A model generated the notes under the pieces. It searched no databases. It saw only the letters and a list, made by a program, of their open reading frames with translations, and was not told where the DNA came from. From NCBI RefSeq assembly GCF_037042905.1, contig NC_087251.1, forward strand, positions 5,458,001 through 5,522,000: a stretch of 64,000 nt of DNA, read 5' to 3'. The translations under genes and the position numbers were made by a program. Within the stretch, counting starts at the first letter, position 1, and every line of letters begins with the position of its first letter. Shown in pieces: positions 22,133 through 63,716 of the stretch. This stretch comes from Lytechinus pictus. Taxonomy: Eukaryota.

Positions 22133-22351
22133 ATGTTTTCACCGCAAACGATGTTCTCCCACTGTTTAGCGACGAAAGTTGCCTTTGTAATTTTCGCGTT
22201 TTTTGTGTGCCTGAGTGGGTTAATAATAGAGACGAACTGTTCGCCATTACAGGATGAAACTGTTGATATTGGTGAAAGCTATCATCGAGGCATTCACCCA
22301 AGCTTCTTGGACCTACGGCCACAAATCGATAAAAGGTTTCCCAAAATGCTG
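22133..22351 (+). CDS. Prokineticin/astakine-like secreted peptide precursor, coding exon 1 (signal peptide, propeptide, KR, FPKML)
   Basis: MFSPQTMFSHCLATKVAFVIFAFFVCLSGLIIETNC-SPLQDETVDIGESYHRGIHPSFLDLRPQID-KR-FPKML. Hydrophobic signal and dibasic site. Ends at a consensus donor CTG|GTAAGT in phase 0. Alternative ATG at 22151. Confidence 0.8.
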
Positions 22352-22403
22352 GTAAGTATTCCATTTTGGTTAATCTGTATCCATACTCTGATTTCAACTA
22401 TTA

Positions 22404-22673
22404 TCTAAACGCAAAAGAGCTAAATAAATCTGGTCCATAATCACGTTTCCTTGGAGTGAGATGAACTCACTCATTTTCGAGTTAGATTTTTCATATTTCT
22501 AGAGTGGATTTCACCTCCTTTTTAGAGTGAAATAGTTTTTTTAAAGTGTTTAGTTTACTCCAGAAGGAGCTACAATGCACTCTATAAGGATGTAAAGTTC
22601 ACTCCAAATGGATTGGTCCCTACTAGAGGAGTGTGATTAGGGACTAGATTAGCTCTTATTGCATTTAGAGAGT
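22404..22673. mobile_element. MITE
   Basis: Inverted arms CTAAACGCAAAAGAGCTAA...GGTCCATAATCAC / GTGATTAGGGACTAGATTAGCTCTTATTGCATTTAG. Confidence 0.55.
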
Positions 22674-23982
22674 AAAGACTCGAAACAAAGCTGGTTTTTA
22701 AGTGATGAAGAGGGAATGACAGAGAACATGTTTCGTTTTTGTATTGGGTTTAGTCTGTAAATCAAGTACGTATCTAATGGATCGCCTAGCAAACAGTTCG
22801 TTGCTAACCGGGCTTTGTGAGATTGGTTCCTGGTTTGAAATGAGTAACATTAATTTGTTTACATTATAGGCCTAACATTTTAAAGATATGACAAAGCTGC
22901 AGAGAATTCAAACCTCTGAAGCCCGTCTAGTTTCTCTCATTAGAAATCCCGATGATACTACAAAGAAGGGGATTGGCTCTCCATCAAATTTAGCCAACTG
23001 GTCAAAGTCCTTTTATGGTTATTCCCCAACATAATCATTCTAATTTGATATATACTCCAAATAATTCAAATTTTAATTCATTATTTATTCGGCACTTAAA
23101 CATACATTTATACAAATTACAAAGTCAATTCAATATCAATTGCAATACAAAAGCATAATCATTGTACAAATGTGATGTGACAGTTTTTCAAGTGCATTAG
23201 TTGTCGACCAGAGAACAGAGGAGCAAACTTAATCACTGTAACCACGATAGTCCAGCCGTCCTACCAACCCATGAACTGGTAAAAATAAAGGATTAGGACA
23301 AATGAAATGACATTTATACGTGAAGACAAAAATACATGTAAATACAATAAAGAGATAACGTCTTGAAAGGCAATTTGTTCTACAAATAAACAAAAATGCC
23401 TGTAAAAAAATAAAATAAATAATGTTTAAAAAGTATGGCCTACCAAGCACTGATCCATAATGTGGGATTTTTTTCCAGCTTCTATTCGTTGTAAACCTGC
23501 ATGTATTATTCCGTCATTTAGGTCATAATTAAATACTTATAATCCCATGGGAATGGCATATTCAGCCTAGAATTGAATACAGTTACCTTTATAATTTTAT
23601 TCACTATTCATTTTATTGTATCAGTATTTAAAAGCACGGAGATATAAATACCAGAGAAAGCACAATTGGAGGCTAATTATTAGTACTGTTATTGTTATTA
23701 TCATCATCTTTAATAATAATATTATTTTTATATCAATATTCAGTTATTATTATAATTATCAATGTTCCCTTGTATATACAGACGTACCTTGGAAAATGAC
23801 ACAGAATAACGATATAGCTGACCTATTTGTTATCATGTAGGTTTGTTTGTATAGTACTTGTTTGGTGTGAAGTGCTAGTGCTAAAAAAAACTATACGAAA
23901 TGAGCCAACTTTGCAAGGTCGAGCCATCCAGAAATGGATAGATTCAAACACCGATTCAATTTGCAATATGCGATAAAAAAGA

Positions 23983-24388
23983 GGTTTATTTCCAATTCGT
24001 CCAATTACCAACTCGTCTACTATCATTTGGTCTACCATCAGTTCATCCACTCACCACATGGTCTACTTTCATTTATTCTAAAGCCATTCAGTCTAATAAC
24101 CAATTGGTTAGCCAATAGCCATTCAGTCCATGCACTATTGGTCTAATTGGACTTAGTGTTGAATTGTGAAAAATTGATGAAAATTAAATGAATATTAGAC
24201 CAACTGGTTATCAGAGGAAATGGTCATAGACAAAATAATGATTAAACGAAGCGATGATTGAACCAAAAGGTTAATGGACCAAAATGGTTGTTAGACGAAA
24301 TGTTGATGGATGGAACGACATTAGACTAAATGATAGTAGACCATGTTGTGAGTGGATGAGTAGGCAGTAGTGGAATTGGCAATTTACC
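23983..24388. mobile_element. Small foldback-like MITE with degenerate ~15-bp subunits and GG...CC ends
   Basis: GGTTTATTTCCAATTCGTCCAATTACCAACTCGTC at the left and GGAATTGGCAATTTACC at the right. Mirrored GGTCTA/TAGACC units. Confidence 0.65.
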
Positions 24389-26242
24389 AAAAAGGTATGT
24401 GTTAGAGTAATCAAATTCATTATAATTTTCTCCTCAGAAAAGAAGGTAAAAAGTTATATCTTGGAATTAGTGTCCTCTTTATAACAAAAAATATGACATG
24501 ACATTACACACACAAGTGTATTGTTCCTGAATATCTGTGTAATCACCTAAGCATTCTTATTGACTGAATATTAATGAAGGTTTTTATCGGATATCAGAGT
24601 ACTTGTTTTTAACATATTTTTAATGGTCGTTAATAATGCACCGCACTTTTCAAGATGATAACTAAACCATAAACTCATTCGGTTTTATTAAATGATTTAA
24701 AATTTACAATCATAAATAACATGGTCCAAACGAATATATATTAAGAAGGTGTGTTGTATGATATCAATTGTGTAGTTTTTTTTCCTGCTTTATGTTTACA
24801 CGTATTTCTATATTAGGGACCCCTCTGTAAAACAGCGTTGATATGTTATCAACGCTGTTTTATTATTGTAAATATATGTCTTTCTTTTAAAGTAAAATAT
24901 ATACAATACAATACAATACAAAGTGAAATTTAACTTGTGCTTAACATTATTTATAATACACATGATATATATTTTTACACATAAAACCCCCGGGTTAGTC
25001 AGTAAATGCAATAACATTCAAATCAAGCGAAGAACCGTGATTTAACTATCGTAATTAAACTCAAGGGGAAAATTGAGTAAAACTCAGCATCATCGGGATG
25101 TTCATTCATTTTTCCCTGGAGCTTAACGTTCGCTCTTATAGTCTCCATTCAAACATCATTGCAAGCTGGTATTCGTAAATAATCAAATTATGTCTCATTG
25201 ATAAATTCTGAAGAAGCGGATGACCATTGTCTGAATTTACAAAAACAAAATGAATTAAATTGAGGTTTAATTTCAGCAAAGAGTCTGATTGTTATTGCAT
25301 AGATTCGTCAAAAATGCACATATTTATTTTGTGATCTGGTCTGTAATTGTGGTTGCTTGTCAGAGACAGAATAGGCTTGGACTTCGCGATGAGTTACAAT
25401 ATCATCCCGGGATATTGAATTTTGTCTACGAGCTTAAAGGCCAATATCAGCTTTACTCTTACCTTAATTCTGACATTCAATAAATCTATAGATCTATCTA
25501 TCCATTGATTTATCAATTTATCTATTCATCCAGTTGTCCCCTTCTAGGATCCATGTATTCAAATGCATCTTTTATCACCTACAACTAACATGACTTTAAC
25601 ATGAATGTGCAATAGTTAATGTTTGTATACAGGGCATACCTAATTACCCACATCTTTTTTGTTGCTATTTGTAATGATGTGGGAAATAATAGAATTTTGT
25701 TTTGTTATCTTCTTTTTTCTATACTTTTCTTTCCGCTTTCTATCAATTGTTTATAGTGCATTTCATTTAACATTTTGGATTTCATGAATCCACCATTTAT
25801 CAATATCTCTTTCACCAAAACACCCAGTCCCTCTCCTCTCTCTTATTTTCATCTACCTTAACACCGATGCTATTGTGATATTTAATATTGCAACCCACCG
25901 TTCTATTCCATCCAGTGAGTCAAGCTTTTTTCTAACTCTTCTTTAACCCAGATATTAAATTATCTTTTTAACGGCCTTCACCTCTATGGAACAGGTGAAC
26001 AGAATCTAACATGGGTGTCTTCGTAATCTACCTGTAATTGATTTGAGACCTTTGATAAAAAGTGAGGTAGCATATTCTGCTGCTACAATAGTACGAGACG
26101 TACCCAGAATATATTTGTATTTACGTATGCATTTTTAGTGAAGATATTTCAAATATTTTACTAAATATTAGTTACTTCTGATATCAACATAATTTAGGCA
26201 TAGACATTTCTGACGATAATGATGATGATAAAAAGATAAGGA

Positions 26243-26313
26243 TACTACAACTACTACTACTACTACTACTACTACTACTGCTACTACTACTACTATACTA
26301 CTATACTACTACT
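26243..26313. repeat. (CTA)n microsatellite
   Basis: Seen directly. Confidence 0.9.
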
Positions 26314-27479
26314 AAAGTGATTAGAATAACGATAATGATTGTTTTGTAGCACGAATGGCTGTCAAACATGTCGAAGGGGGCAGCACGTTTTAGTAATTTT
26401 AATAAGAGTCGGCAGATAACGATAGAAAGGAGAACTTTTAAAGAGTGTATCCTATGACTTGTAGATGAGAAGATTGACTAAATTTTTTTTTTCATTTCTT
26501 GTTTTGTTATATTTCGTAACATATACGGATTAAATAAGTATGTTATAGTTATTAAGTTCGTAGTGTTGAAGGGAATGTATTTGCATAATCAATACCTTTC
26601 TACAGGGTGTAGGAAATGGACGACCTTTCTCACGCTTGGCTCGTGGGACATTTGAAATACAACATATACAATAATAAAACGTCTCGTATATCCATCTTTA
26701 TATAATGTAGGTTAATACAATTATTGCTTTCATGTGATGAAGGAACTTGAATGGAATTTTAAAAAGGACGTTACCCGTAAAACTATATATCGCCGGATAA
26801 AGTACCGGTTTCTGCAGTTCGGTAATTCGCCGTGCTTTGCATTAGACGGTGTTTACTCCGAATTCAGTGCTTCCTCTTCTGTCACACATCATTGAAATAG
26901 ACAACATTTCATGATGTTTCTGTAATTTGGTGTGTTCCACAAAACACCATGTATATCCAGTGTTCAAATCCTGCTCATCCGCCAAAGATCCTGAAATTAA
27001 ATATGAATTATTCATTTAAAATGTCTTTGTGGCACTTTTAAAGGGGTGATCACATTTCTCCGGATTAGATTATTGTTCATAGCGGGTCAGCAATTCGCTC
27101 TGTTCCGCTAAAGACCATGTTACATTAACACTTTACATAATCCTGGTCATTCGTCACTCATCCGCCATAAACCCAGAGAATCGCGCGGGAACCATCCCCC
27201 CAAAATGCATGTCTAGATATGAATACATAAACAAATGAATTAATAAGAAACAATATAATAAAATAAGATAAATAAATGTAATAAATAAATAAAACAGTAA
27301 TGATAGTGATAATAATAAATAAATAAATGAAGAAAAAAATAAATAAATAAAAATTAATAGATAACTAGATAAATGAGTACAAAATATAATATTTCAGTTT
27401 TCCGGGCAGTCTTGGCGGGAAAAGGGACATTATAAGCACATTTTGGTCATCATGATACGTACCTGTCTCGCTAAACAAA

Positions 27480-28160
27480 CAATGCGAGCGCGTAGCGCGA
27501 GCTGAAATTTTTGTATATATTGACGACAAACATGGACATTTTAATGACTATTTTTTAAGGAATCCATTATGAGTATTCATATATAACCATAGTCATCTTA
27601 TGCGATTGCCAAGCGCTTTCTGATTTTGTTAGAATAATTGCATCTAAACACATGAAGCACTTTTTGAAGCCATTGTAATCATGATTATCATACGCATCTC
27701 ACTATTCAAATACTGCGAGCGCGAAGCGCGAGCTGAAAATTTAGGATACTCAGACATGCAGAGGGGCATTCTAAGGCTTGTTTGTATGAAATTCACTAAG
27801 ACCATACGTATATTAGTAACCAAATGATGCGAGCGCAAAGCGCGAGCTGAAAATTTAAAATTTTAGAAAAAGGGACATTTTGAGGACTGATTTTACGAAT
27901 TCATGAAGAGCAGACATATCATACCAATCTACTAATGCGAACATGGCGAACGTAAGCTCGGACTAGAAATGTTTTATAGTCAGACCTTAAAAGGGGGCAA
28001 TCACTTTAAGTAGTCATGAAAAAGAAGCATATGTCACTACATAAAACAATAATAACTCGAACTGCGAGGAAATATATTTTGTGTATATTGGCTTGAAAAC
28101 GGGATGTTTTAGTACAACGGGAATAATAATCTCGTTAAACAGACAATGCGAGCACCAGGA
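27480..28160 (-). repeat. Second member of the GCGAGCGCGAAGCGCGAGC repeat family, inverted relative to 16.8-18.1 kb
   Basis: Motif copies at ~27484, 27715 and 27829, each followed by TGAAA(A)TT. Confidence 0.6.
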
Positions 28161-29819
28161 ACGATTAACACATAGGCCCTGAGCCACTAGCGTACCTAAG
28201 GAGGGAGGGGGCAGACTGCCCCCACCCCTGATGAGTCACAACTGATCCAGGGGACGTGCCACCGCCCCCCCCCCCCCCCCCTTTTGAGAAGAAAAATTAA
28301 ATTTTTTTTTTGCTTGTCAATTTTTTTTCTGGTACGAAATTCTTTATTTGTGGTTGAAGAATTTTTGGAAAATCCTGGGTACGCCGCTGCCCTGAGCAAA
28401 TTACGTTTCATAAAGTTATGAAAAAAAAATGCTTATGTAATATAACATAACATATATAATATAATACAACATATTACAATGTACAATAATTTATTATATC
28501 CCACTTTGTTTCTCTTCCTTTCTCCCTTTCACAGTTTTTGTAATTCGTTTTGGCCACTGGTTAGCAGTGTTAAAAAGTATCGAGAACGCAGTGGTTTCTG
28601 CCATCCTTGGGGCACTGTTCACGGCGATTTGAGAATTGCCATCTTTACCAGCGACGTGTAATTGCCCTTAAGCATTTTTGACTTGTACATATCCAAACGC
28701 CGCGAAACGTCGAAAATGCCTGCGTCTCATACGCTTACTTTATATATATAAACTGCGTGATTCCCGCGGCAGTGATCCGCCAGTCTTTGCGATGTTTCCA
28801 CGCCATCTACATAAAGTTAATAACATTGAAACTTGATGGGTGTATAGAGGGTGGAAGAGGATGGTATCGAAGCTTGTTTGAACCACCTCAGTACGGAGAA
28901 CATCTTCTATTTTTTAGAACACTAATTGCGCTGGTCCTATGTTATTAGATGCATTAAAATGGTCCAATTTCATCATGAAATTATGCTAGATTTTGATTAT
29001 TTGATTCAGAATGACGTTTGAGTGTTTTGGTTGGTCAAATTGACTGCACCGTGTCAATAAAGTAATTAATCTGTCAAACACTCAGTGATTGTCAGTATGA
29101 CAGGTGTATTGGTTTTCGGAGGTACAGACATAACTAACGTTTGATTTTCCACTCTGTCTTAGAAATGTAAAGGTCACTGTAATATCAGTTCTACAAAATT
29201 CAAGCATCGAGCTCGCTCCATTTGTCCTTGTCAAATGTATATATTTCAATGATTGATATAAATTTCAATCTCGCATTTCCTGCTACTACTAAATGACAGG
29301 CAGCTCTAGATGCATCATATTTCATTTCTAGATATGATCGTGATCATCACACTTCTAGTCATCACCTGCGCGCTATACCTCTCATAAAATGTAACGATAT
29401 ACTACTATTCCTGCTGCATACGATATGGCATTTCCTGAGTGACATCCAAGGACATTCCGGCACAAAGAGAGGTGAAAATATCATGGTGTTGTAAGGCATT
29501 ACTGGTGAGAAACTCTTGGTAAAAAAATGATCGTCTCCTTCGCTTTCTGCATGTAGTCTCTCAAACGCAGGGTGTAGAAAGTTAAATAGAGAGAATAGAT
29601 AATTCTCATTTGTGACACTTTCAGACACATAGAACTTTTCGTATATTAATACATGGTAGACCAGAGGCGTCGATCTTGGTGCCGGGGGGATCCCATTGCT
29701 CTGGGACGATGGGGTGCAGGGGCGTCGATCCATTTTTCAGATTGGGGGGGGGGGCGAAATCATGAATCAACGTTCCAAAGGCGCTCGATCAAACAAAACA
29801 AACAAACTCACCCATACAC

Positions 29820-30115
29820 ATTGGGGTTTTTTCTGCTGGTTATTTTGATATAAAGCGAGGGGTAAGATAGGGGGATCCCCTCTCCCCATATTAAATTTTG
29901 TTTCTGCTCTGTATAGAAATACTTGCTTTGGCAATAAGGAAATACAAAAATGTTGAAGGAATTCAATTTCAGAACCATGAAATAAAGCAAATTTTGTATG
30001 CTGATGATATATCATTGTTTGTAAAAAAAAAATACACATTCTTTAGAACGTCTTCAATACCTTTTTGAAGAATTCGAGAAAATTAGTGGTCTAAAAATAA
30101 ACAAAGGAAAATCAT
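29820..30115 (+). mobile_element. L1/Tx1-clade LINE RT fragment
   Basis: GYFDIKRGVR*GDPLSPY, LFLLCIEILALAIR, KGIQFQNHEIKQILYADDISLF, FEEFEKISGLKINKGKS. Confidence 0.8.
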
Positions 30116-30170
30116 GTTACCTGAAACTCATGCAAGATGATCATTGATACTTTATTACCCAAATCCTCTG

Positions 30171-31671
30171 GGGCGGTATTCTGAAAATCGTGTTAACTTT
30201 GGTGTTAAATATCGTGTTATCTCTCTGATTTAACACGCCCCTAACATACCCCCAAATCGGTATTCTGAAAACCGTGTTATCTGCGTGTTATCTCATTTCG
30301 TGTTATCTTCAGCTCCTCCCACTCTGCATTTATTTAATCCAATCAAATGCGCTGTTACAGAAACAAATCGAGCAAAATTTTCAGGGAAAAGGGGAGTGCG
30401 CGCTCGGTGACACGAAGCTTGCATTGTGACATCATTTTTGAAAGCGCATACAGCTATTAAAACAAAAGTTAGAGCAAGAAAGTCAGACGTGGGGAGGGGT
30501 GATTGTGACCACTGGCGTAAATCCCGAGGAGGGGGGGATGGCCTGTACAAACATCCCCCCACTTTTTACGAAAGAAATGAAAAAAAAATCACAAGAGATA
30601 ATTGTTTTATTACGAAATTATGACAGGAGACAGAGGCCTCGATCGATTGTGGAGCAGGCAGGGGACGATCGCCCCTAAAATATGGGGGCAAGCATAATTT
30701 ATACATGCCCCCAATACTAGTAATTTTAAGAACTTGAAAAAATAAATATGCAATGTAAATTTTGAAAAGCATGAAAAGCACCTTAAGAAAAATTAAACCT
30801 GACATAGAAATATCAGACATACAAAATTGTATTTTTTTTTCTTTATTAACATTTTATGCGTATAGCGATCAGCCCCCCAACAAAAAAAAACTTTTGCCCC
30901 CTCCCCTATCCGAAGCATATAGATTGACTGGCGGGATAGATGAATTAAGGATAACCTAGAAGCATTGAGAGTCAAAAAAAGTGTATTCATTGGAACCATT
31001 GAAAAAGGGGGAAAATTGTGAATATTATAGAAGAGTTCCCCAATCGCCAATTCTATTCCTTTTAATTTCTGTTTGTGACTTTTTTAAGACGTTTTAAATT
31101 TTCTTCCTCTCCTTCTGTCTTTTTTATATTATGGCAAAAAGTAACTAAATAAATAACTCATGAACATTTATGATAGTGATTTTAATTAATACAAATTAAA
31201 GATGCATTTGAAGTGTATTTTCACAGGAAATTCCAAAGAAATTGTTGTTTAATCATTGTTCGTAGAGAGAAAGGTAGATGGAAAATAAAGCTGGAAAAAT
31301 GAAAGAAAATTACAGTAAATTCTGCCAGACGATAGTTATATGCCCGTTTATGTTCTTTTTGACGTTTGCGTCTGCTAAAAAAGAGTGCAGCCATCGTCAT
31401 CCCTAACTTAACCTCTCCTTAACGCAGTGTTAAATGTTCGTGTTATCTTTGAACAAAATTTTAGCTAACACCATTTTCAGAATACCAAATTTCGTGTTAT
31501 CTTCCTCCCTAACACCGCGTATGGGGGGTGCGCGTTGCGCTCTGCGTATTTCATAACCTGCGCTGTGTTACCACTTGGGCCACGTGTTTTTCATGCTAAC
31601 ACGATTTTCAGAATACCAATCGTGTTAGCTAACACCGTTTTTGTGCTAACACGGTTTTCAGAATACCGCCC
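30171..31671. mobile_element. PIF/Harbinger non-autonomous element, 1.5 kb, CTG TSD
   Basis: TIRs GGGCGGTATTCTGAAAA / TTTTCAGAATACCGCCC with CTG on both flanks. Repeated subterminal CGTGTTA motifs. Confidence 0.8.
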
Positions 31672-31776
31672 CTGTAGGTTATGGTGAGTTTTCAAAAACT
31701 TAACATGAATAAATGATTAGCAAAATCGTGAATGAAACATAAGTTTAACATTTCTCTTACTAAAAGGTATGTCCAG

Positions 31777-31905
31777 GGGCCCGTAACAAAAAGCTTAGCA
31801 ATGATTGTAGAACACTTTTCTACGATTGATTGCATTGACTACAATGTACAATCAATCGTGAAAATCAAGCGTACGATCAATCGCTAACCTTTGTGTTACG
31901 GGACC
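31777..31905. mobile_element. PIF/Harbinger-type MITE, CAG TSD
   Basis: GGGCCCGTAACAAAAAGCTTAGC / GCTAACCTTTGTGTTACGGGACC, flanked by CAG. Confidence 0.75.
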
Positions 31906-32266
31906 CAGGTCACTTAATTTTCAACACTTAATTTGACCTTTAATGTCAGTTCGAGTCTGGAAATATGTAGAAAAATACAAGAAATATCATGAAAATGATT
32001 TTCTCTCTTGGATAAAGTTCATCATTTTTATACCAATGGATTCCGTGACCTCAGGAATGGTGGTTTGGGTGTCTAAATCAAGATTCTAGTTTACTTTGGC
32101 GGCCATTTTGAAAAGTCAAAGATGGCGGCCATATGGGTCACGGGTGCAAATGTAAACATTGTTATTCTGAATCCTTATACAATTACCTTTCCAAAAATGT
32201 ACAATTTTCAATTTCTCCAAAAAAATCGGGCGAAATTACATAGCAAAAGTGACTATAAGTGAAATG

Positions 32267-32985
32267 GGGTGATAATTTGTGGTGTCAGTTTTTGCACAGA
32301 TTGTCGCGAAATTGTCAGGAGTGACAATTTGTGCTGGAGTGACAAATTGTCAGGGGTGACAATTTGTGCTGGAGTGACAAATTGTGCAGGGGTGACAATT
32401 TGTGCTGGAGTGACAAATTGTCAGGGGTGACAATTTGTGCTGGAGTGACAAATTGTGCAGGGGTGGCAATTTGTGCTGGAGTGACAAATTGTCAGGGGTG
32501 ACAATTTGTGCTGGAGTGACAAATTGTCAGGGGTGACAATTTGTGCTGGAGTGACAATTTGTCAGGGGTGACAATTTGTGCTGGAGTGACAAATTGTCAG
32601 GGGTGACAATTTGTGCTGGAGTGACAATTTGTGCTGGAGTGACAAATTGTCAGGGGTGACAATTTGTGCTGGAGTGACAAATTGTGCAGGGGTGACAATT
32701 TGTGCTGGAGTGACAAATTGTCAGGGGTGACAATTTGTGCTGGAGTGACAATTTGTGCTGGAGTGACAAATTGTCAGGGTGACAATTTGTGCTGGAGTGA
32801 CAAATTGTCAGGGGTGACAAATTGTCAGGGGTGACAATTTGTGCTGGAGTGACAAATTGTGCTGGAGTGACAAATTGTGCAGGGGTGGCAAATTGTGCAG
32901 GGGTGGCAATTTTTTGTGTCAGTTTTTGAACAAATTGTCGCCAAGTTGTCGAGGTGACAATTTGTGGTGCAACAAATTTTCTGGG
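32267..32985. repeat. Minisatellite of alternating 17-19-bp units (GTGACAATTTGTGCTGGA / GTGACAAATTGTCAGGG)
   Basis: More than 30 units between ~32315 and 32910, bracketed by the direct repeat TGTCAGTTTTTG.ACA.ATTGTCGC. Confidence 0.9.
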
Positions 32986-35900: not shown

Positions 35901-36009
35901 ATCCATTTTGAAAACTTGGAAAGGTACGATTTGGAGCAATACATTCATTACCATTATGTAGTGCATGGTATCGACAGGAATTGGTTTCTGTTTATTCTTC
36001 TTTTTTTTC

Positions 36010-50414: not shown

Positions 50415-50747
50415 GTTATTGTTTCAAGCAATCTTAGTATTTTGAAGAATTATTTTGTGTATCCCTGATGTTGTACTTAAACTATAATCTTTTATCTGCC
50501 TTTATATTATGTATTTGTATTACTTGGTTAATGTCATCGATATGTTTTGTACTTCGTTTTATATATCTGGGATGCCAACTTGTATGGGTTTTCCTAAACC
50601 TTGTTTTGCAACCCGAGACATGTAAATATTTTATATTTTTATTTTTCTGTCTGAATAAATCAAATCAAATCAAATCAAATCACCAGGATGTAGCTAGGAA
50701 TTCCGGTGGGTGATGCAAAACTGTTGTTTATTTAAATTATGTTCCCG

Positions 50748-51172
50748 TCCGGAGGGGGGGGGCAGTCAAATTAATTGCTGTACACATGCGTGACCCCCAA
50801 AACGCGTTTAAAGGGGTGTTTTTGCAGTTTTGGACGCAAGCGTGCACCCGCTAAGGGTATCAAAAACATCGCTTTTCAAGAAAAAGTGTTAATTTGACAG
50901 ACTTTTCAATTGTCACTCGCGGGGTCAAACGTATTTAGGGTATGTTTTATTTTAAAGACTAGCCAAACGTGTTTAGGATATGTTTTTCCCCAAGCTTTTT
51001 CCCAGAGGTCATATTCTGGCGACAACTTGTTTAGGGGCCAAATTGTGTAAATAAAGCAAGCGAAAAACTTGTTTAGGGGTTATAATGCACACAGAGAAAA
51101 ACTCGTTTAGGGAGTGTTTGGAAATAATTTGGTCAGGCATGTGTACAGCAATACATTTGACTGGCCCCCGGG
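50748..51172. mobile_element. MITE with (T/C)CCGG...CCGGG ends and an 8-bp TSD
   Basis: Inverted arms CAGTCAAAT..ATTGCTGTACACATGC.TGACC. TSD TGTTCCCG / TCTTCCCG. Confidence 0.8.
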
Positions 51173-52339
51173 TCTTCCCGCTTGTATTTGTTAAGATATT
51201 TCTTCACTTCGTTTGCATTTACATTTGTTGTTGTTTATATATCCAAAGGAACTATCGCTGGGCTAGCACCATGAGCGTCTCTGGACGGTGTGTGCGCTCA
51301 TTAAGATATCGCAATTATTAGTATGCAACATTAATCACCACGCATCATGAAACAGGTATAAACTAATTGTTATTTTTGTTTGTTTGTTTTTGCTTTACTA
51401 AAAAGCATTATATCAGGCGCTGACCATTCTCTTGAATTATTAAACTCGGTTGTCAATTCTGATATATCACATCGCCCTTAATTACCACAGGAGTACACTT
51501 TTCATTCTCAAATCACTATCTTTTTTTCTTTGGTCAGCGCATCCCTCTCTGGAGTTTATTTTTTAAAAGCCCACGTATGATCACAGGAGTTCTGAGATCA
51601 ATTCCAACACAATTTATCAAGCAATTACATCTTAAGGATTTAAGCGAAATTGATAATTACTGATGTATGAATTTGGACCTCTAATGAGGACTTCGCCTGA
51701 CTGTTGTCTTCTCTTTTTTACTATTCCTCTCTCATTTATCGTAAAAAAAAGCTATTTAATTTGTGAAAGAATAGTATGAATTGCGCAGTAACACGATAGC
51801 ATGAACAGTTTCCCAAGGTTGATAGAAACATGAGAATAAAAAAACCGTTTGAATAATTTCAAGCTTGGATTCAAATGCAAAGGATATGGAACGATTGCTG
51901 TTTGTTGTGGGTTATCCTGAAGATCTCAAATATTTGTGAACAGTATTGGAAATAGAATACTGATGAAAGAGCCGAATAAATCCCTATTCCCCGTTGAAAG
52001 ATTCTATGTGATAGATCCTTGTGGTGTACTTTTTCGAAAAGGGTTGGATGACTAGATTAATAATAAAGATTGCTCATGTCATGAGGAAGGGGTGAAATAT
52101 TTGCCAGAATGCATTGTTAAGGGCAAATTGGGAATGGGTAAGCAACAAATTTCTTTGTTTAATCATCAAGAAATGGATTGGTGGGTCCAGGGGCAACGAT
52201 GTTGTGAAACCTTACACGCACACATATCCAAGATGTTCTCAAAGAAAGACGAAAAGGGGGATGAGAGATTATTTTGCATTACGTCAACAAAAGTTCTCTG
52301 ACAAAATGCGCCTATTTGCTATATTTTTTATTTGGCATG

Positions 52340-53085
52340 GATTTAAAATGTATATTGATAAGTCTTTGAACATGGATGCACATATTTCGTCTACCTGCAA
52401 AAGTGTTTTCTATCACTTGCGAAACATAACGAAGATTCGCAGATTCCTCTCTGAACCAGATGCTGCAAAAGTCATCCATGCCCTTGTCACGTCGCGAGTG
52501 GACTGCTGTAATGCCCTGCTTGCTGGTTTACCATTCTTCGGCCTCAAGACTACAAAGAATACTCAACAACGCTGCCGAGTTCTTAAAGGAGTGGGCAAAT
52601 ACGAACATATTACCCCAACCCTAAAAGAACTCCACTGGCTTTCTGTGTCGAGAAGAATTGAATACAAGATCCTGACATTAGTGTTCAAAGCTCTTCATGA
52701 CGCAGCATCTACTTACATCAAGGATCTTCTTGTTGTGAAGCAGGGCCACTATTCTCCAGACTATTCTTTACGATCTTCCACATCTACCATCCTTGTGATT
52801 CCGCGTACCCGGACCAGGCATTATGAAGATCGGGCTTTTAGCTATGTGGCCCCAGTCATGTGGAATAGACTGCCAAGTACTATCAGGAATATGAACACGC
52901 TTAAGACATTCCAATCAAGTGTCAAATATTACCTATTTTCACAATCATATTAGTGAAGTCCATGTCTTTTCCTCATATGAATGTTATACTTGATGTTTTT
53001 AATTGTGAATATTTCCAATGTTTTTGTTTATTTAATATGTAGCGCCTTGAGTAATGATACATTAGAAATACTCATTATTATTACT
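52340..53085 (+). mobile_element. L2-clade LINE 3' fragment
   Basis: IDKSLNMDAHISSTCKSVFYHLRNITKIRRFL...HALVTSRVDCCNALLAGLP...EHITPTLKELHWL...DRAFSYVAPVMWNRLP. 3' end GCGCCTTGAG...(ATT)n. Confidence 0.85.
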
Positions 53086-53382
53086 TACAGCAATACACCC
53101 GGTATGCGGTTGAATTACATATTGCATAACATAGAGCATTGAGGAGAGCAGAGTGTAATAGTTAAATACTAATAGTTGAAAATGTTTCAAATAAGACAAT
53201 TTTTTGAAGGTTGAAATGTATTTTATGTTCTTTTTATCATTGCTAGATTATTTTGCATGCCTGACAAAGAGGAAATGAAAATTACAGATTGCATAACATA
53301 AAACATTGAGGAGAGCATCTTCCCCCGAATTGTATGATCGATTACAATCTTTGTACTTTCTCTTTTTTTCCTTTTTTCTTCA

Positions 53383-53973
53383 TTAAAGGTCAAGTCCACC
53401 TCAGAAAAATGTTGATATTAATAAATAGAGAATAATCAAACTAGCATAATGGTTAAAATTTCATCAAAATCGGATGTAAAATAAGGAAGTTATGATATTT
53501 CAAATTTTTGTTTATTTTTCACAAGACAGTTATATACACAACTCAATGACATGCAAATGAGAGAGTCGATGATGTCACTCACTCACTATTTCTTTTGTTT
53601 TTTATTGTTTGAAATATAGAATATTTCAATTTTTACAGATTTGACAATAAGGACCAACTTGAATTAACCATAAAATGTTAAGGCGATGGTAATTCCATGT
53701 GTTCAGGGAGGAATGAAACTTTGTTTCAATAACACTGAGGAGAAAATGGGAATAAATCAATATTTCATATAATGAAATACAAATAAAATAGTGCATACTG
53801 ACCAGGATGTGCATAAAACTGTTTTGTGAAATTAAGCGAAACTTTAAAATGTCATAACTTTCTTATTTTACATCCAATTTTGATGACATTTTCAGTGTTA
53901 TGCTCGTTGAATTTTTCTCTTTTTATTCGAATCAACTTTTCGTTGGCATGGTTGGGGTGGACTTGTCCTTTAA
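53383..53973. mobile_element. Kolobok-like palindromic MITE, TTAA TSD
   Basis: TTAAAGGTCAAGTCCACC / GGTGGACTTGTCCTTTAA. Inverted arms CATCAAAATCGGATGTAAAATAAG / CTTATTTTACATCCAATTTTGATG. Confidence 0.85.
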
Positions 53974-54894
53974 CAATTTGATCAATGATCACTCATCCAT
54001 TTAGACAACGGGTTTGGTATTTGATTTTGATTACCTCCACCAAATTTTGCCATTATTTCCTGAAGTTTTTGTCGTAATTCAAAATAAATAAATTCAATGG
54101 ATTTTAGTTTGTCGCATTTAGAGAGTTGTGATCAGGGTTCAGTTCAGAATACTCATCTATAGACGTTGGAAAGATGATAATGCTGCTAAAATTTGAAAGT
54201 ATACCAAGTAATCATTGATTCTGTGTGACATTTTTTGCTGTCCTTGCTTCTTCTTTATCTGTGAAAACCAGGAGAATGCAGGCATATGTCGTTTTTGGAC
54301 TACATGTTCAGATTTGCGGATACCATCTTTATTTTTAATTACTGTTGTGCATTTTGACGGCTCGTTTATTTCGTTATGACATTAAAGCCAAATGTGATAG
54401 AGAATCCAATTCAATATTTGCATCATCTGTATTAAAGGCCAGGTAAAAGAATTCATACCCTCATTAAAATCATAGCATTAGTGAATTAACAAAGACCTTA
54501 CCATCTGCTAAGTTCATCAACGAGTCTCATCTCAATCATCTTTAGACAGCCAAGGCAACTATGTGAAATCTTATCAACTTACAATAGGTTTTGGAGACAT
54601 ATCATATTTCGGATGCTAATACATCTTAATCCACTTTGCTATTGTAGGCCTATTCTTTTACCAGGAGTCTACAACCACCTATGTTGAATGAGCACTTTGA
54701 TCAGGAGAAAGACGATGCAGGTCTCGTATTGTTTTGCATAATGAAGGAAATCATTTCATTTTCCCTAAAAAATAATACACATACCCACCTTCAATATATT
54801 TACAGCTGTGTTGAATAAACCTAACCAATCGCTTTGATATTGGAGAAATGGTAAAACAAAGGTTTTCATCTTTTTTCTTATTCTGTCATGTCTT

Positions 54895-55160
54895 GTGGAG
54901 CGTTGTGGCCCAGTGGATTAGTCTTCGGATTTTGAAACAGAGGGTCATGGGTTCGAATTCCAGCCATGGTGTAATTTCCTTCGGCAATAAATTTATCCAC
55001 ATTGTGCTGCACTCGACCCAGGTGAGGTAAATGGGTACCTGGCAGGAATGTATTCCTTGAAATGCCACCGCGCTGTAAAAGGCTAAAGCCAGGGTAATAG
55101 TAAGCGCATAGGGACGCATTTGGCAGTGATATGCGCTATATAAGCATGTTTTTATTATTA
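54895..55160 (+). mobile_element. tRNA-derived SINE (same family as 48932-49232)
   Basis: Same head with A and B boxes, shared core CCACATTGTGCTGCACTCGACCCAGGTGAGG, (TTA)n tail and ATGTCT on both sides. Confidence 0.9.
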
Positions 55161-57100
55161 ATATGTCTCATGATAGATCACTACATAGCTACAATCAAAT
55201 GCATGTTGCACTGAGTGTTCCGTTCACTTCATGAAAATTAAGGCTACACAGATATGATATGAACAAAAGGTTGATAAAACAAGAAGAGACGTTTGTATTT
55301 AGTCTTAGTTTGTATTTTCAAGTTTAGGCATTATTTATTTTTTTAGATCTGATGATGAGTACTTACAATCCTTCTAGAGGTTTCTTAATGGCCTTGACCT
55401 TGAAAATACATTTCAAGTTCTCCTTTCTAACCAGCGGCGATGAAGCTCTTGAATAACGATGTTCCAAAGTGGAAGACTAATGCGTCTTCCAACTAACTGA
55501 CGTATAAACTACTCTGGCTAAATGCATCAATTCGAAATAAATTCGGTTTGCTACTTTAAACATTATGAATAGAAACCTACTGATGAATATAATTATGATA
55601 GGTAAATCATACATTTGCAAACAAAATTATCGTCCTTGAAATTCATTTTTCTTTCTTCGAAAGTTTGTCTTTGGATGACAGCAATGCTTTTGCATGTAAA
55701 ATTCATGACAGCAGTTTATTCTTAATAATCACAATTTCCTCTGCTGATTCTGCTAAAGTTGTTTTTGGTTCATTTATTCATGTCATTCTGACAGTGATTT
55801 TTATTAATTCAGTTTTCAATGTATATGTGTAAATAATTATATGTTTCGGATTTTTTATACCCATTTGATGGAGTTGATGGATAATATGTAATTCTATATT
55901 TGAATTCATTCAGTCAGTAATCAAGGACGTATCAAAATGATGAGGTAAAAAAGGTTGATTCCCAGGTATATATATATTATTTTAATTTGCATGTATATTG
56001 GTATTCGGCTTGATTATCGTCATTTTTTTTCTCGAGCCAGCATGAATGAACATTTACAACTCACTTCCGAAGCTCTATTTGATTCTCCGAAGTCTAAACA
56101 GATCAGCAAACAAAATCTAATTTAATATTTGAAGTAATACAACTCAATGATATCAGATCATTTTTTTACCAAACCTCCTTCCGTACATAGCGTATCATTT
56201 TTTGAAATGTTCATATAAATATCCCAATATATTATAATATATCTGTAAAAAAATAAAAGACGAAGTTAAACTGATCGTATCATAATCGTTGTAATATATT
56301 ATCATTTTCGTTATTAATATTTATATTACAAAAGTTATTTTTTATTGTTTTCAATCGTATTATTCTAATATCAACATCATCATAATCCTCATTAATATCA
56401 TTTACACCTATTTTTAATGGTATATTCCGTATTGTAATCTGTATAAATAAATCATAACAAAACGATCGACGTACAATGCTCAGGAGATAGAGATTCGGAA
56501 TTGTATGACATTAGAGTCAACAATATGCTTTAAAGTTGATATAAGACTTGATAAAGAGTTTGATTTATACACTTGATAACTTGTTTGAATTTCATATCTA
56601 ACTTAGATTACACCATCACCATTATTTCATTCTAAAATAAACTTGGTTTTAAAATTGTTTTTTTTTAATGAATATTTATTCTTATATCATATGCAGCTGT
56701 TTGCAAACATCTAGATAACAGTCAATGGAAACATTCAATCAAAATTTAAAACACTTGCATTTAGATTCATTTAGGATTAAGATAAATTTGAACTATTTTC
56801 AATGGTTAATTTATAATGATTGAGGCAATTTTTTTCGGACTGAAAGATATATCAGATTAATGATTTATTTTCGATTTTGATAGTGTATGAAGTATTCATT
56901 TTCGTTTTGTGGGGTTTTTGTAAGTCATACAAATTAGTATCGTTGTTAACTTTGAACTCTACTCATAATGTTTCCCATCCTTTCCTGCCATTAATGAAAC
57001 CGGAAGGTCGTATGGACATTTCCATCTCGTTTTTGTTTGAACCTTTGCGCATTCTACGTACTGCGTTGATAAATGGTTAAAACTCAATAAACTTTTAAAA

Positions 57101-59180
57101 TATACACAACAAAAAAAGTAAGTCCCCCCTTAAACAAACATCAATAATTTCCGAACCAATGCGAGTTTTTAATATATTTTTACATGAGCGTGTAGGTAAT
57201 TTTATAGGCTACCCTCTGAGTAAATGTTATGGACGTATTTTACGTCATGCTTCAGTGAGCACGGTCATAAGGCAAAAATGTCACTTTTCAAAAGTCACAA
57301 GCCAAATATCATGACTTTGATTCCATTTTTATTGGAACTAATTCCACATTCTCATCATGAAAAATAGTCAGAAGGCTTGTAAAAGGTACTTTCTAAAAGA
57401 CAATACAACTTTTCTGGCTAAATTTCACGGTTGAATGAACACAAGTCCAAATTTGCTATAATTGAATTTTGTACACATTTCTATCAATAAAAATGATAGA
57501 ATATGATGACAGTTATTTTTGGGAAGAGTATCTTTAACAATATTCATTGTTTCACGGTTCAATGAACATTTATTGAAAACAAAAGATACGATTTTTAAAT
57601 ATCATAGGCAAGTATTGTTTCATTTTGGTAACTGAAAATGATCTTTTCTCAACTTTTTCGTTATGTTCATGACCAATTAACATGCTTCAATGATTCAAAG
57701 GCGTTTAATTAAACATTCACGCTTGAATGAACATGTGAAATGTGATTAGCTCTTTTTTACGTTATTGGAAAAAAGCAATTTGTAACTATGGGTATCTGTC
57801 ACAAACCTCCTTGCGTGGTTCATTTGATTAGATTTTTATGAAAATCCCGATGTTTAATGCATCAGTGAGCACACAATATTCGAAAAATTTTCAAATGAGA
57901 AGAAAGTTCAAGGCCCTGGCCCCACTCTGTGCCGTATCAAATGGTTATTTTGGTGTGCGCACATTTTGGATAGTGTTACACTGAAGCAATGTGCGAAGTT
58001 TCATGAAATAACTGTTGGCAGAAGTAACAAAAACCGTCCATGAAACAAACCCTCATTTCATATTTGTTAAAATGTTTACTTCCTCTCTCATAGACTTGTG
58101 TACATTATGGGTGCATATGTTTAAGAATAAGTAACCCCCTATTCAATGTGGTGGAACTTTTTTCAAGACTGTCTTTAGCAATGTCATTTGGCAGTAATGT
58201 TTATCAACATATGGGTAGAATTATGTGCAAAAATGAAATCGATTTGTTTATTTACGGATGAGTGAGCACACATCAAAGTGGGAAATTGGGTATTTTCAAT
58301 GTCACAGACCCATTTTAAATGATAATAAAGTGAATATTGGGGGCAAATTCTGTTTCAAATGTGACTTTAATTGCTGTTGTTTTTATCATCTATCATTTCT
58401 ATCACCACACACTTTCCGAAGTTTTAAAATGTTCATGGTTGAGCGAGCACATTCGAAAACTTAGGAATGAATACTCTTTATAGTGCATAAATGTATTTTT
58501 TCTTACAAATTCTCATGATCAGTTTAATTTATGGACAAATCAGTGGTGGATCCAGAATTTTAAAATGGGGGAGGGGCCTATAATCGGGGGAGCCACCAAC
58601 ATTTTCAAATTTTAACATGATCTAACAAGTTGTAGAGGATACTACCATAAACCCCTAAAGTTTGATGATACGTCACTATACAGGGGCCGCGGAACGGTTT
58701 TCAAAGTGGGGGGGGGGGGCTGACCATGCAAAAAATCACAATCGTATGGTCATTTTTACATTTTTGTACATGCTTTTGGAAAAAAAAGTGGGGGCTGAGC
58801 CCCCCCCCCCCCCCCCCCCCGCGGCCCCTGCATTATTGTGCTCACTCAACCATGAACATACGATATCAAAATTGTGTGTGGAGTGGCTAAATGATGGATA
58901 GTAAAACAGCATTAACACCATAAAATTCACCTAAAAGCAACTTTTGCCCAGCTTTGTATTTGCACAATCTGAAAAACGACTCTTGTGACTTTCAAAAATG
59001 GTCATTTTTAATTCAATCTTTAATTTCTCATGCATGACTCAACCGATCAATCTCATTTTTCCCCAGAGGTTGCTTAATGAGTGTAGAAAACCACCTACCA
59101 AATATCATATCTCAAAATAATTCCGTTCAAAAGTTACAGCAATTTGATTTAGGGGGGACTTACTTTTTTTGTTGTGTATA
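57101..59180. mobile_element. Tc1/mariner-type non-autonomous element, ~2.08 kb, TA TSD
   Basis: TATACACAACAAAAAAAGTAAGTCCCCCCT / AGGGGGGACTTACTTTTTTTGTTGTGTATA. Internal GTTGAATGAACA / TCAGTGAGCAC repeats. Nested MITE at 58681-58830. Confidence 0.85.
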
Positions 59181-59352
59181 GTTAACCTTGACGTTATCTG
59201 AAATATGTTGTGACCAATACAGTAGCGAAGCACGAGCAACATTTTTTTAGAGGTACATTATGTAGAGCCTACTACCTCAGGTGATGGTTCGTGTACATGC
59301 ATGGTGTAGGCTCCATGACACTTCGCTGCCGCTACACCGCCCCGAATAATTG

Positions 59353-59948
59353 TCGCTCTGATACTCCGAGTGACAAAGGTGCCACTTTGTGTGGGGAAAA
59401 CATAAAACTCATGCAAAAAATTACCATACAATTCATTGATAACAACTCATTTGTTTCACTCCCTTTCTACGCGTCTATCACTATCAAAATTGGTATATTT
59501 CTTCGCACCCCCTTAGCACGTATTGACAGTGTTCACTACCGAACCAAGACATCGCAAACGCAAATTGCGCAAGCGCGGGGATCGCGGGTCAAGACTGAGG
59601 AATATATTATGAGGTTTCCAGAATCTCGCGATCGGGAAAATAGCGAAACGATCTCGATATAATGGAATACTCATAAATATTCATGAGTCTTGACCTGCGA
59701 TCTCCGCGCATGTGCAATTTTCGTTTGCGATGTCGTGATTCGGCAGTGAACAATACGTGCAAAGAAATACTCTTAGCTACTGGATGTAAATCACCAATTT
59801 TGATACTGATAAAGTGTGGAAAAGGAGTGAAACAAAATGGAATGTAGGATGAATTGTTATGAATGAATTGTAAAGTTATTTTGTTTGCATGAGTTTTATG
59901 TTTCCCCCACATAAAGTGACACCTTTGTCACTCCGAGTATCAGAGCGA
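59353..59948. repeat. ~600-bp imperfect palindrome (MITE-like)
   Basis: TCGCTCTGATACTCCGAGTGACAAAGGTG..CATAAAACTCATGCAAA is mirrored at 59884-59948, and pairing continues towards the centre near 59650. Confidence 0.85.
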
Positions 59949-60099
59949 GTTATGTACCATGATTTTTTTTTTAAACAATTTTTTAAAAATATATTCATAA
60001 TCATACAAATCATACATGTATCACAAAACAATACAAGACGAAATAGATATTGCAAACAATTATTAAAGGTAACACTTTTGCTCACACTTGCTGATGATT

Positions 60100-60990
60100 A
60101 CAAAATAACATAAGAATGATATTATAAAACATTGTTTAATACATGTACATACTTTGGGGAAAAAAGTAATGATAAAAATGAACTATACGCATCCATTTGT
60201 TACTCTAAATCAATCTGTTCCCATTTCTGGATATGCATTGCCAAGGCAATCTTATATTCTTCTTCCTTACATTTTCTACAATGTTCTATCATTGTTTTTC
60301 CAACAGGTGACAAAAAACTGCTTCCTGCCTTGCAGAATTAATCTCTTTTTTAAATATTAAAATTACTGTACTTAAACATTTTATCCTATTTGAAGTTCCA
60401 GCAATCCCTAACAAATTGTCTCCCGTGGAGACTGGAGAGATTCTCCAATTCTTTTAACCTTGATTTATGTCCAATATTTTTTCCAAAGTGCTTGAACATT
60501 CGGGCAATCTTTAAGTGATCAAAAATTTCATGTTTTTGATAACAAAACAACATTTGTTAGATAAAATATAATCGATTTTATGAAGTTTATCATTTGTGTA
60601 AATAACCCCATGGAACTGTTAATATGTCGAATTTGTTTCACTGTTAAACAAGAGAAAATCCGATTGATTTTATGCACGTCATCCATCTTTTTCAAACCGT
60701 TAATGAAATATTTATATAACTGCTTTGAACAGACCTTGTCTAGTGTTACATTTTTCCCAATAGTTCTAAAGAGATATGGTATTCATGGGACTAATTACTT
60801 TGTAATGGATTAAGCCTAAATGAACGTTCCAACCAATTGGCAGAGCATCATAATTATATACCATATATTTTCAAAATATCATTAGAGTCCAAACCGCGGT
60901 TCGAAAAATAAAATACTGGCCAAGTGGCCGTTTCCATCAATCAAATCAATAAGTTTAAATTTGTTATATAGAGTTTTACATCAAATACCA
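60100..60990 (-). mobile_element. L1/Tx1-clade LINE 3' fragment (zf-RVT region)
   Basis: Minus strand, frameshifted: FHGVIYTNDKLHKIDYILSNKCCF...EIFDHL..DCPNVQALWK...LIFKKEINSAR...EEYKIA...KWE. Confidence 0.65.
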
Positions 60991-62864
60991 TTTTGCTATC
61001 AATGGTTCGGGTAGTTGTAGCGGTAGTGAAGTGCAGTGGAGCCTACACGAACCATCACCTAATGTAATTAATGTATGTACATGTACATGGTTTGTGTTTT
61101 TGATGTTGATTTGCCTACTAACATTGGAAATTTCATGTCCAGATTGCTTTCATTTTTAATATACATGGGATCTATATATATGAACCTGTTTATTAGATTT
61201 TTCTCATTTCCTCGTCGAAGTAGGAAAAGAAAATGATCGAAGTATCACTACACTTAACAATAACAAAGTATCTATTTTACATGATTTCCACGCTTACCTG
61301 CCTAATAATGAATAGTGTTTTCGCTTTTAGTATTGATTTATGATTTGGTAGACGGAAGGCAGGTGATATTGAAAAGTGTGAAGACTCCCTTCATAGTACC
61401 AACATATTATTGTTCTTACCAATTTGAATGAGATACCATCGCGTGTTACCAACGTAGGATATAGGCTTATTTTTTCTAAAAATTACAATTGATATGCAAA
61501 TTAAAGTTGCAGCATTTTTTATGCTTCCTTTTGAGCAGATTCTGCTTGATGTTCAAATCTACATCAACCGTGATTAAAGGAATTTCGAACAAGCATACTT
61601 TGAAAAAATTATGTAAATCGGATGTAAACTATAAGAAAGCTATAACATTTTACTTTTTTGCTAATTTTCACAAGAAACTTTTTTTTAAAGGACATGTGTC
61701 ATGTTTTGCATTAAATCATTAAATAAATAATCAGTGAAATACATAATCAGTTCAATCATTTTCTTAACCGTACATTTATGTGTATATAACTGATTTGTAA
61801 TCAAGAAAAAATAGAAATTTTCGTCCAATTTTTATGAAAAATGTCTATTTACTGATTTTTTTTTCGTTGAGGTAGACTTTAAGAGGTAAATGCCATATCC
61901 ATCTAGGTTTACATCAAGATATGACCGGTTCAAATTTGAATGTCCTTTGCATGGGCCATTAAATTGAGTACCAGATCAATCACGTGGTGATCTAAATTCA
62001 GTTTCATGAATAATAATGAAAAACCAATCCTAGAACATAGTTATATCTTGCTTTACCGTACTTAACCTTTCTGTAAAAGGTGTGAATTTTGCGTTGATTT
62101 CGTATCCGACCCTCTTCATGATATTGATTTTTACTGCAGTGCGCACTCTTTTGATATTAAGTACCATGATTGTTTCACTTTCGTTGTTAATTTCCATTCA
62201 GTACCAACCGCTGACACCTTTCATGAAATAACTTGGTCATCGACCCAGAGATAATTCCCAATACAACACTTTATATAACTGCCCACTCCTGGGACATAAG
62301 ATTAAGATGACGTCAGAAGTACAAGTTTTTAATTGTCCTCTTACGTAAATCGTTGATCTATTGAAACGCAATATGACTTGTTCCATCCAACGACATCGCC
62401 CTTGTAATAATCACCGTCGAGAGACGCTCATGGCGCTAGCGCAGCAACAGTTCTATTGGATACTACAAATATAATTGTAAACGGAGTCAACAAAGAGAAA
62501 TTACTACAAGTACAATTTTGCATCACCCACTGAGATTCCTAGCTAATACTGGTTGGGGCTGGTGCTCTCCTGCTTGCTGCTCCGTTCCCGACAATTTAAG
62601 GGGCAATCCCAGTCAGCTCAGTACTCACATCAGCTCTAGCAAACATAAGGGCACCAGTCCCCATAGGAAGCTAGTCAGACCAGTGAGCGATTACAAAACA
62701 AGATGTAGAGTGTACTTTACTTGTATACAAAGCAATTTTGTAATAAATGCACTCTTTAAAAGGTTTGGCAAAAAAGGCCCAATTTTCAACCATCACTGGG
62801 CAACATAGTGTCCACACAACTATTGGTTAAAATCTGTCCAAATTGGGTAATAAAACTAATAATT

Positions 62865-63290
62865 GGGTAATAAATAAGAAGTCTCGCACTGGAGTTTTGA
62901 TGAGAGTGCAATCTGTTTTGGTGTCGTTTAGGAAGTCCAAAGAGAATAGAATAATCTAAACGCGATGTGATTAATGCATGGAGTAAATTGTTCACATGCT
63001 TTTTTTAATCAAGAACCTATGTATCAATCCCAGGTTACGCAGTTGATATCTCGCTTACTACGAAATACTTTATACCTGCTCAATCAAAAACATGTTTCTA
63101 CCAAAGTTCCGTACACTTGAGGCACGATGAATGACTTTATCACCGTCCTACGTGCAGAACCAATTGATTGTGATTGGCCTTCATTAAGGAATTCTTGAAT
63201 CCCCAAATCACGAATTCAGTTTTAGTCATGAGATGACATGTTTCAAAGGGCTTTTCTCTGAGTTTACGTTTATTACAATGTCTATGATAT
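62865..63290 (-). mobile_element. Degraded L2-clade LINE fragment
   Basis: LLHALITSRLDYSILFGLPK..QNRLHSHQNSSARL, with upstream KTEFVI.G and LRNLG motifs. Confidence 0.7.
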
Positions 63291-63473
63291 CTGTCTCTAA
63301 TACTTATGAAAAATATTGCTTTTGGATTAGGTAATCTAGAAAAGACTTTTTCTGAGGGTTGAACATCTTAGGCAAGATTGGGGCCAATGTTGCCAGAGTA
63401 CTATTCAAGCTATAAGCAATAGTGTTGATTTTGTTTATCTAATTAATTGTTACTGTTCTTTTTATCTCTACAG

Positions 63474-63716
63474 ACCTGTAGAACGGACCTTGATTGTTTA
63501 GAACTTGATCGTCCCACGTGTTGCGTCCGTTCACGAATTGGTAACCATCGGGTGTGCAAGCCATTAGGTGGTCTTTTTGATCAGTGTAATACCCGAAGCC
63601 AATCTTTCCCTTGGTTTGGTGTTCGTGAGGGATACTACTGCCCATGTGCCATCGGTCTTCAGTGTGAAAACCAAGGAAGGTTAGGTGAACGAAGGCGAGG
63701 CCAGTGTGGATTCTGA
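63474..63716 (+). CDS. Prokineticin/astakine-like peptide, coding exon 2 (10-Cys colipase-fold domain to the stop codon)
   Basis: TCRTDLDCLELDRPTCCVRSRIGNHRVCKPLGGLFDQCNTRSQSFPWFGVREGYYCPCAIGLQCENQGRLGERRRGQCGF*. Spacing C-x5-C-x7-CC-x10-C-x9-C-x17-CPC-x5-C-x13-C with a CKPLG motif. Strong acceptor TTCTTTTTATCTCTACAG|ACC. Confidence 0.9.
   Translation, partial: TCRTDLDCLELDRPTCCVRSRIGNHRVCKPLGGLFDQCNTRSQSFPWFGVREGYYCPCAIGLQCENQGRLGERRRGQCGF

Follow-up and report, generated by a model that had tools for sequence, protein, structure and literature searches.

The stretch of DNA analysed here, 64,000 nucleotides of the Lytechinus pictus genome (assembly GCF_037042905.1, contig NC_087251.1, positions 5,458,001 to 5,522,000; hereafter the window), carries on its forward strand a two-exon gene which, judging from its sequence, almost certainly encodes a small, cysteine-rich precursor of the prokineticin family that is probably secreted. 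We read its product as a prokineticin precursor of the ambulacrarian type that would be cut after a lysine-arginine (KR) pair and whose new end, which begins with Phe-Pro-Lys (FPK), would activate a receptor. To this account as a whole we assign a probability of roughly 0.78. Its parts differ in strength: the structure of the gene can be followed base by base, the cleavage is predicted from conserved sequence, and the activation of a receptor by the FPK end is something that we infer purely by analogy with the vertebrate ligands.

The gene model had been proposed in an earlier note on this DNA, made from the letters alone, according to which positions 22133-22351 are spliced to 63474-63716 to give a protein of 153 amino acids (aa); coordinates and frame proved exact to the base (Table 1). 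The frame of exon 1 starts with ATG, has in-frame stops upstream of it and encodes, around aa 15-30, a hydrophobic core followed by small residues at -3/-1, as seen by Kyte-Doolittle hydropathy only, with candidate signal-peptide cuts after aa 28, 29, 34 or 36 under the -3/-1 rule. The word KRFPK (aa 67-71, starting at 22331) leads into a consensus donor two codons past it. When the window is translated in all six frames, six words of the form [KR]RF.[KR] occur; Pro is the fourth residue in a single one of them, the word at 22331. Exon 2 is preceded by a pyrimidine-rich stretch (63449-63473) that ends in CAG at 63471-63473; it continues with ACC TGT and remains open for 80 codons from 63474 to a stop codon at 63714-63716. 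Both exon frames are intact and bounded by consensus splice sites, and they join in phase 0, the other two phases meeting stops within a few codons. The joined translation of the window gene (73 + 80 = 153 aa) has 85 aa after the KR pair at residues 67-68. This part contains 10 Cys with intervals of 5, 7, 0, 10, 9, 17, 1, 5 and 13 residues, the first Cys being at position 7; the description of a KR pair followed by an 85-aa, ten-Cys part with exactly six residues (FPKMLT) before the first Cys is thus borne out in the translation. A TATAAA word lies about 225 nucleotides 5' of the ATG (window 21903-21912), and two short upstream ATG frames are found in the presumed 5' leader.

Table 1. Features of the window gene and its intron (window positions, forward strand, position 1 being the first letter of the window).
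Feature	Position	Strand	Basis or remark
Exon 1, coding, ATG to CTG, followed by GTAAGT	22133..22351	+	73 codons
Probable signal peptide with its start codon, about aa 1-29	22133..22219	+	Hydrophobic core, -3/-1 rule
Predicted propeptide, about aa 30-66, sequence not conserved, one NCS sequon	22220..22330	+	
Dibasic KR, aa 67-68, putative convertase site	22331..22336	+	Aligned RR/KR in relatives
FPKML, first five residues of the predicted mature peptide and last codons of exon 1	22337..22351	+	Published signature
Phase-0 intron, GTAAGT to pyrimidine tract and CAG	22352..63473	+	41,122 nucleotides
Decayed non-long-terminal-repeat retrotransposon (long interspersed nuclear element, LINE) inside the intron	46826..50414	+	Exo_endo_phos_2 33.9 bits, RVT_1 97.9 bits
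Exon 2, Thr6, entire 10-Cys prokineticin domain and stop codon	63474..63716	+	PF06607; sequence matches to Bv8 and MIT1; structure model

The family assignment rests on exon 2. A hidden Markov model search, which the earlier note had suggested as a check, gave 31.4 bits against the Pfam family PF06607 (Prokineticin) for this exon alone (cut-off 21.6, E 2.5e-7); MIT_LIKE_ACTX (19.7 bits, cut-off 27.5) and Colipase_C (15.3 bits, cut-off 23.7) remained below their thresholds. Among the sequences of the PDB, phmmer matched exon 2 to Bv8 (3.2e-7) and MIT1 (4.6e-7). The first nine Cys of exon 2 align with those of MIT1, and the spacings x5, x9, x17 and x5, which had been given as identical to those of MIT1, agree with its sequence. 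In these alignments Bv8 shows CIPLG and SHKVPY, and MIT1 shows CTPVG and SHKIPF. The Cys columns are invariant across 13 aligned sequences. With this 13-row alignment the best AlphaFold2 model reached a predicted local distance difference test score (pLDDT) of 84.9, the remaining four lying between 57 and 62. The first Foldseek matches were MIT1 (1imt, template-modelling (TM) score 0.74, E 4.1e-4) and Bv8 (2kra, TM 0.69), and colipase and Dickkopf chains followed with TM scores of 0.46-0.59; a look-alike search in the ESM Atlas returned a prokineticin cluster first (score 0.90). The view that this is a prokineticin-type molecule is upheld, with PF06607 above its cut-off and a predicted fold nearest to MIT1 and Bv8, not to Dickkopf or colipase.

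A second gene of the same build is present in the genome. A search of its 812 Mb (368 contigs) detected one paralogous exon 2, which lies on contig C3 and is 49% identical to that of the window gene. The two exons of the paralogue (C3:66333511-66333711 and C3:66369347-66369583) are separated by an intron of 35,635 nucleotides. Its exon 1 ends in NKRFPKFL followed by the donor GTAAGT; the acceptor falls at the same codon as in the window gene (CAG, then ACC TGT GAA), and exon 2 begins with TCETDDDC and scores 25.7 bits on PF06607. This first exon came to light only when the 100 kb upstream were scanned for the motif; among six candidate frames one was chosen, in which an ATG is followed by a hydrophobic core and a spacer. 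A whole-genome protein search with exon 1 of the window gene detected no paralogue of it, and the two first exons are alike only at their ends, DKRFPKML and NKRFPKFL.

Relatives with the same layout also exist in other ambulacrarians, the group to which the closest named relatives belong. An exhaustive HMMER search of 1.84 billion representative proteins yielded 11 matches, with the NCBI-annotated full-length proteins P0007 of the acorn worm Glandiceps talaboti and P0010 of the sea star Patiria miniata among them, and a word-index search added P0015 of the sea star Asterias amurensis. NCBI labels all three as "uncharacterized protein" models. Their domains are 39-52% identical to that of the window gene, and each protein has a hydrophobic N-terminus followed by a 30-40-aa spacer before a dibasic site, which reads RTRR-FPKIMT-C in Glandiceps, RYRR-FPRLHT-C in Asterias and RNRR-FNRLHV-C in Patiria. 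The only close entry in the protein collections, P0003, results from reading through the acceptor region of a genomic contig; the exon 2 that it represents, from a related genome, is 94% identical and keeps all 10 Cys. In a small tree built from ambulacrarian and amphioxus rows only, amphioxus stands apart from the ambulacrarian rows (100/98) and the paralogue joins the sea-star genes (85/88); the branches are long and the tree leaves the window gene unplaced. In the window gene the final loop, which precedes the tenth Cys, contains ERRRGQC (window 63690-63707, aa 146-151). Its RRG-x-C is conserved at the aligned places in the paralogue and in the close relatives P0003, P0004, P0006, P0008 and P0009; the Glandiceps and sea-star proteins lack it. 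The motif adds another basic cluster, this one within a loop closed by a disulfide.

These comparisons bear on whether the two exons belong together at all. The gene model might be wrong, with exon 2 used in another transcript, for instance a Dickkopf-like one, or the locus might be silent. No full-length protein of the window gene, whether from this genome or from a near relation of it, was found in a collection of 5.8 billion proteins (141-2000 aa range), which also counts against our account as a whole, and the intron is very long and harbours a LINE; the 41-kb intron may itself be the reason why the gene is missing from protein collections. Against such an error stand the intact frames and consensus splice sites, the recurrence of the same build in the paralogue and in the three annotated proteins of orthologous type, the conservation of all ten Cys in the 94% identical exon of the related genome, and TM scores to Dickkopf and colipase chains below the 0.74 obtained for MIT1. 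Dickkopf identity, which the earlier note had named as a possible refutation, was considered and is not supported: exon 2 has no Pfam Dickkopf match, and neither an exon for an N-terminal Dkk-type Cys domain nor a second prokineticin-like exon or any other true Cys-rich domain frame was detected in the window, where the other Cys-rich frames are simple repeats. The two-exon arrangement is more than a chance observation because the E value of exon 2 on PF06607, the single Pro-bearing word, the ATG frame and the donor coincide, and the doubt that attaches to an exon 1 lying 41 kb away is mostly settled by the build of the paralogue, the annotated relatives and the uniqueness of the KRFPK word. 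A wrong model or a dead gene is, in our opinion, highly improbable.

The structure of the precursor suggests how it may be processed. The signal peptide would be removed, and in the secretory pathway a convertase of the furin or prohormone convertase (PC) type would then cut behind the KR pair. This cut would free an 85-aa peptide in which the hexapeptide FPKMLT would occupy the place of the chordate AVITGA. We infer the cleavage from the conservation pattern, in which a non-conserved spacer is followed by a retained dibasic pair, then by FP[KR]-x-x-T and the domain. The earlier note had regarded orthologues without the KR-x6-C register as a sign against it; the register of a dibasic pair, six residues and Cys is kept in 5/5 ambulacrarian sequences with a readable N-terminus (window gene, paralogue, Glandiceps, Asterias and Patiria; P0004-6, P0008 and P0009, which are partial or intron read-through calls, were left out of the count). 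Furin recognises the consensus R-x-[KR]-R, and a plain dibasic site is of the PC1/3 or PC2 type. Four of these five sites fit the furin pattern, namely RTRR, RYRR, RNRR and, in the paralogue, RNKR. The P_proprotein domain of convertases has 6 matches in the genome, at about 5 loci.

Several observations weigh against this account. The site of the window gene itself reads IDKR, with Ile and not Arg at P4, and is only dibasic; it also has Pro at P2'. Prok1 of Xenoturbella bocki reads TREDR-FPKTIQR-C, in which one Arg stands alone and is seven residues away from the first Cys (R-x7-C), and Patiria has Asn in place of Pro, so that register and motif are not absolute. The literature, in the parts available to us, reports neither cleavage nor an N-terminus determination for any member. 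The KR pair might be left uncut, the protein being secreted with an N-terminal extension in which K/R-RFP-K/R serves as an internal motif for binding a receptor or the matrix. This would agree with the published description, which calls the motif a signature only and uses neither "dibasic" nor "convertase" in its main text (PMC11521371), with the EDR of X. bocki, which offers no dibasic pair, and with the basic residue that also follows FP and makes the motif basic on both sides. It would, however, leave unaccounted for a basic pair kept in all five ambulacrarian sequences next to a propeptide that is not conserved at all, as well as the frequent fit to the furin pattern and a six-residue gap to the first Cys that equals the free AVITGA or IIITGA end. 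We consider an uncut KR unlikely.

Once released, the free FPK end together with the disulfide-knotted body would activate a GPCR (G-protein-coupled receptor) of the prokineticin-receptor type. The FPK end would enter the pocket of a PROKR-type receptor by analogy with AVITG, which inserts into the orthosteric pocket of its receptor according to PMC8876856. The ambulacrarian hexapeptides share alignment columns with amphioxus IIITGA, and gene structure provides a further parallel. Exon 1 of mouse prok2 is described as ending after AVITG, residue 5 of the mature peptide (PMC8876856); in the window gene the first exon stops after FPKML, in the paralogue after FPKFL, and in both of them Thr6 opens the second exon. 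Since both end exon 1 after residue 5, the intron lies at the same residue as intron 1 of mouse prok2, and this match supports a positional homology between FPKMLT and AVITGA. We speculate that ambulacrarians produce the ligand as a pro-form without activity and that the cut creates an FP[KR] hexapeptide, positionally homologous to AVITGA, that enters the receptor pocket as AVITGA does; we put this tentative extension at slightly worse than even odds. If it is true, the length of the activating end and the exon structure would be conserved across deuterostomes, while its sequence and its mode of release, by signal peptidase or by convertase, would have been exchanged, and echinoderms would possess a proteolytically gated prokineticin signal.

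The product could also act in another manner, as an astakine-like growth factor for coelomocytes that signals via a non-GPCR surface protein and for which the N-terminus is irrelevant to signaling. Haematopoietic cytokines with a prokineticin domain and no AVIT end are known outside the vertebrates, and F1-ATP synthase beta has been proposed as a receptor in the account given by PMC8398477. Prokineticin-receptor GPCRs, on the other hand, are described from deuterostomes and xenacoelomorphs and not from protostomes (in the relevant parts of PMC6188537 and PMC8398477), and the ecdysozoan signature is absent from ambulacrarian sequences, as are the chordate, spiralian and cnidarian ones from ambulacrarian and X. 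bocki sequences alike, in the comparison of PMC11521371. An astakine-like role appears improbable to us, and activation of a PROKR-type receptor by the FPK end remains the reading that we prefer.

Parts of this picture were already in print. A K/R-RFP-K/R signature adjoining the prokineticin domain's N-terminus has been presented as common to ambulacrarians and X. bocki (Schiffer et al., eLife 2024, PMC11521371, Fig. 8). Xenacoelomorph prokineticin precursors, including X. bocki Prokineticin 1, were reported by Thiel et al. (2018; PMC6188537), whose text states that prokineticin receptors had been known only from deuterostomes before. A literature search on prokineticin in echinoderms brought up no further report beyond the papers cited here. 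The KRFPK of the window gene falls within the definition of the published signature, and the gene is therefore one more representative of a group already on record. The earlier note had left open whether the molecule had been described: on the evidence of Fig. 8 of PMC11521371 its signature had, and the different receptor-activating N-terminus that the note suggested would still be a conjecture. Our additions are modest. They consist of the two-paralogue structure and the very long phase-0 introns at the position of vertebrate intron 1, the gene structure being set apart from the text of PMC11521371 only, and, equally modest, of spelling out the published signature as a convertase site. This reading sharpens the signature into a testable claim, namely a convertase site and a new N-terminus that has the register of AVITGA and shares its exon boundary, and it suggests a way to make active ligand for de-orphanising prokineticin-type receptors of echinoderms and hemichordates. 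What the finding provides is a sound gene model; it does not constitute a new kind of system.

The long intron and its surroundings contain further features. The LINE listed in Table 1 is oriented like the gene, and its endonuclease and reverse transcriptase sequences are spread over three consecutive open frames. A short tandem-repeat block (window 32263-33222) yields several Cys-rich frames on both strands, and a 190-aa frame within it has no Pfam match. Open frames of 171-285 aa without a Pfam family are found at 52096-52953 (+), 40544-41128 (-) and 3195-3710 (+); these frames, two within the intron and one upstream, probably derive from repeats that have decayed. Just upstream of the gene lies an inverted pair of frames with nearly the same translation (window 15724-16170, +, and 19463-19855, -), in which APPTIA... 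flanks surround tandem CSAD/CSVD units; the pair may have arisen by inverted duplication, or a mobile element may have its two ends here. Elsewhere in the genome many small contigs (e.g., C57, C76, C95 and C101) carry tandem arrays of linker-histone H1 genes, at least 150 genes in all, that repeat about every 7.46 kb; we take this arrangement to recall the early histone repeats of sea urchins. The H1 protein had no exact match in the protein collection, and a search of the assembly for COX1 gave no match.

Among the known systems with which the window gene can be compared are the Dickkopf C-terminal domain and colipase. They have the same colipase fold and give weak Foldseek matches, with Colipase_C below its cut-off and no Dickkopf Pfam match for the window gene. 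The arthropod astakines and the oyster Cragi-prokineticins/CgAstakine are likewise secreted invertebrate prokineticin-domain proteins without AVIT. They carry other clade signatures, and no K/R-RFP-K/R is reported for them in the literature description on which this comparison relies (PMC11521371); for the arthropod astakine, that paper refers to a pair of signature sequences within the domain, citing Ericsson and Soderhall (2018).

The AVIT family (PROK1/2, Bv8 and MIT1) is another such system. It shares with the window gene the PF06607 domain, the x5, x9, x17, CPC and x5 pattern of MIT1, the fold and the six residues before the first Cys, and, as regards the residue position given for mouse prok2, the intron after mature residue 5. 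The loops that are x4 and x11 in MIT1 are x7 and x10 in the window gene. The window gene lacks AVITGA and has FPKMLT in its place. Whereas signal peptidase frees the N-terminus of the AVIT ligands, FPKMLT stands after KR, about 35 aa past the hydrophobic core, and a dibasic cut after the propeptide would be needed to expose it. The domain of the window gene is contained in one exon, whereas that of mouse prok2 is described as split over exons 2 and 4 (PMC8876856).

The closest counterparts are the ligands of ambulacrarians and Xenoturbella, which have the same ten-Cys domain, KRFPK directly before the domain, and a probable signal peptide with a spacer. The window gene differs from them by Ile at P4, where Glandiceps, Asterias, Patiria and the paralogue have Arg. 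The window gene and its paralogue both consist of two coding exons separated by a 36-41-kb phase-0 intron, which is placed one codon before the first Cys.

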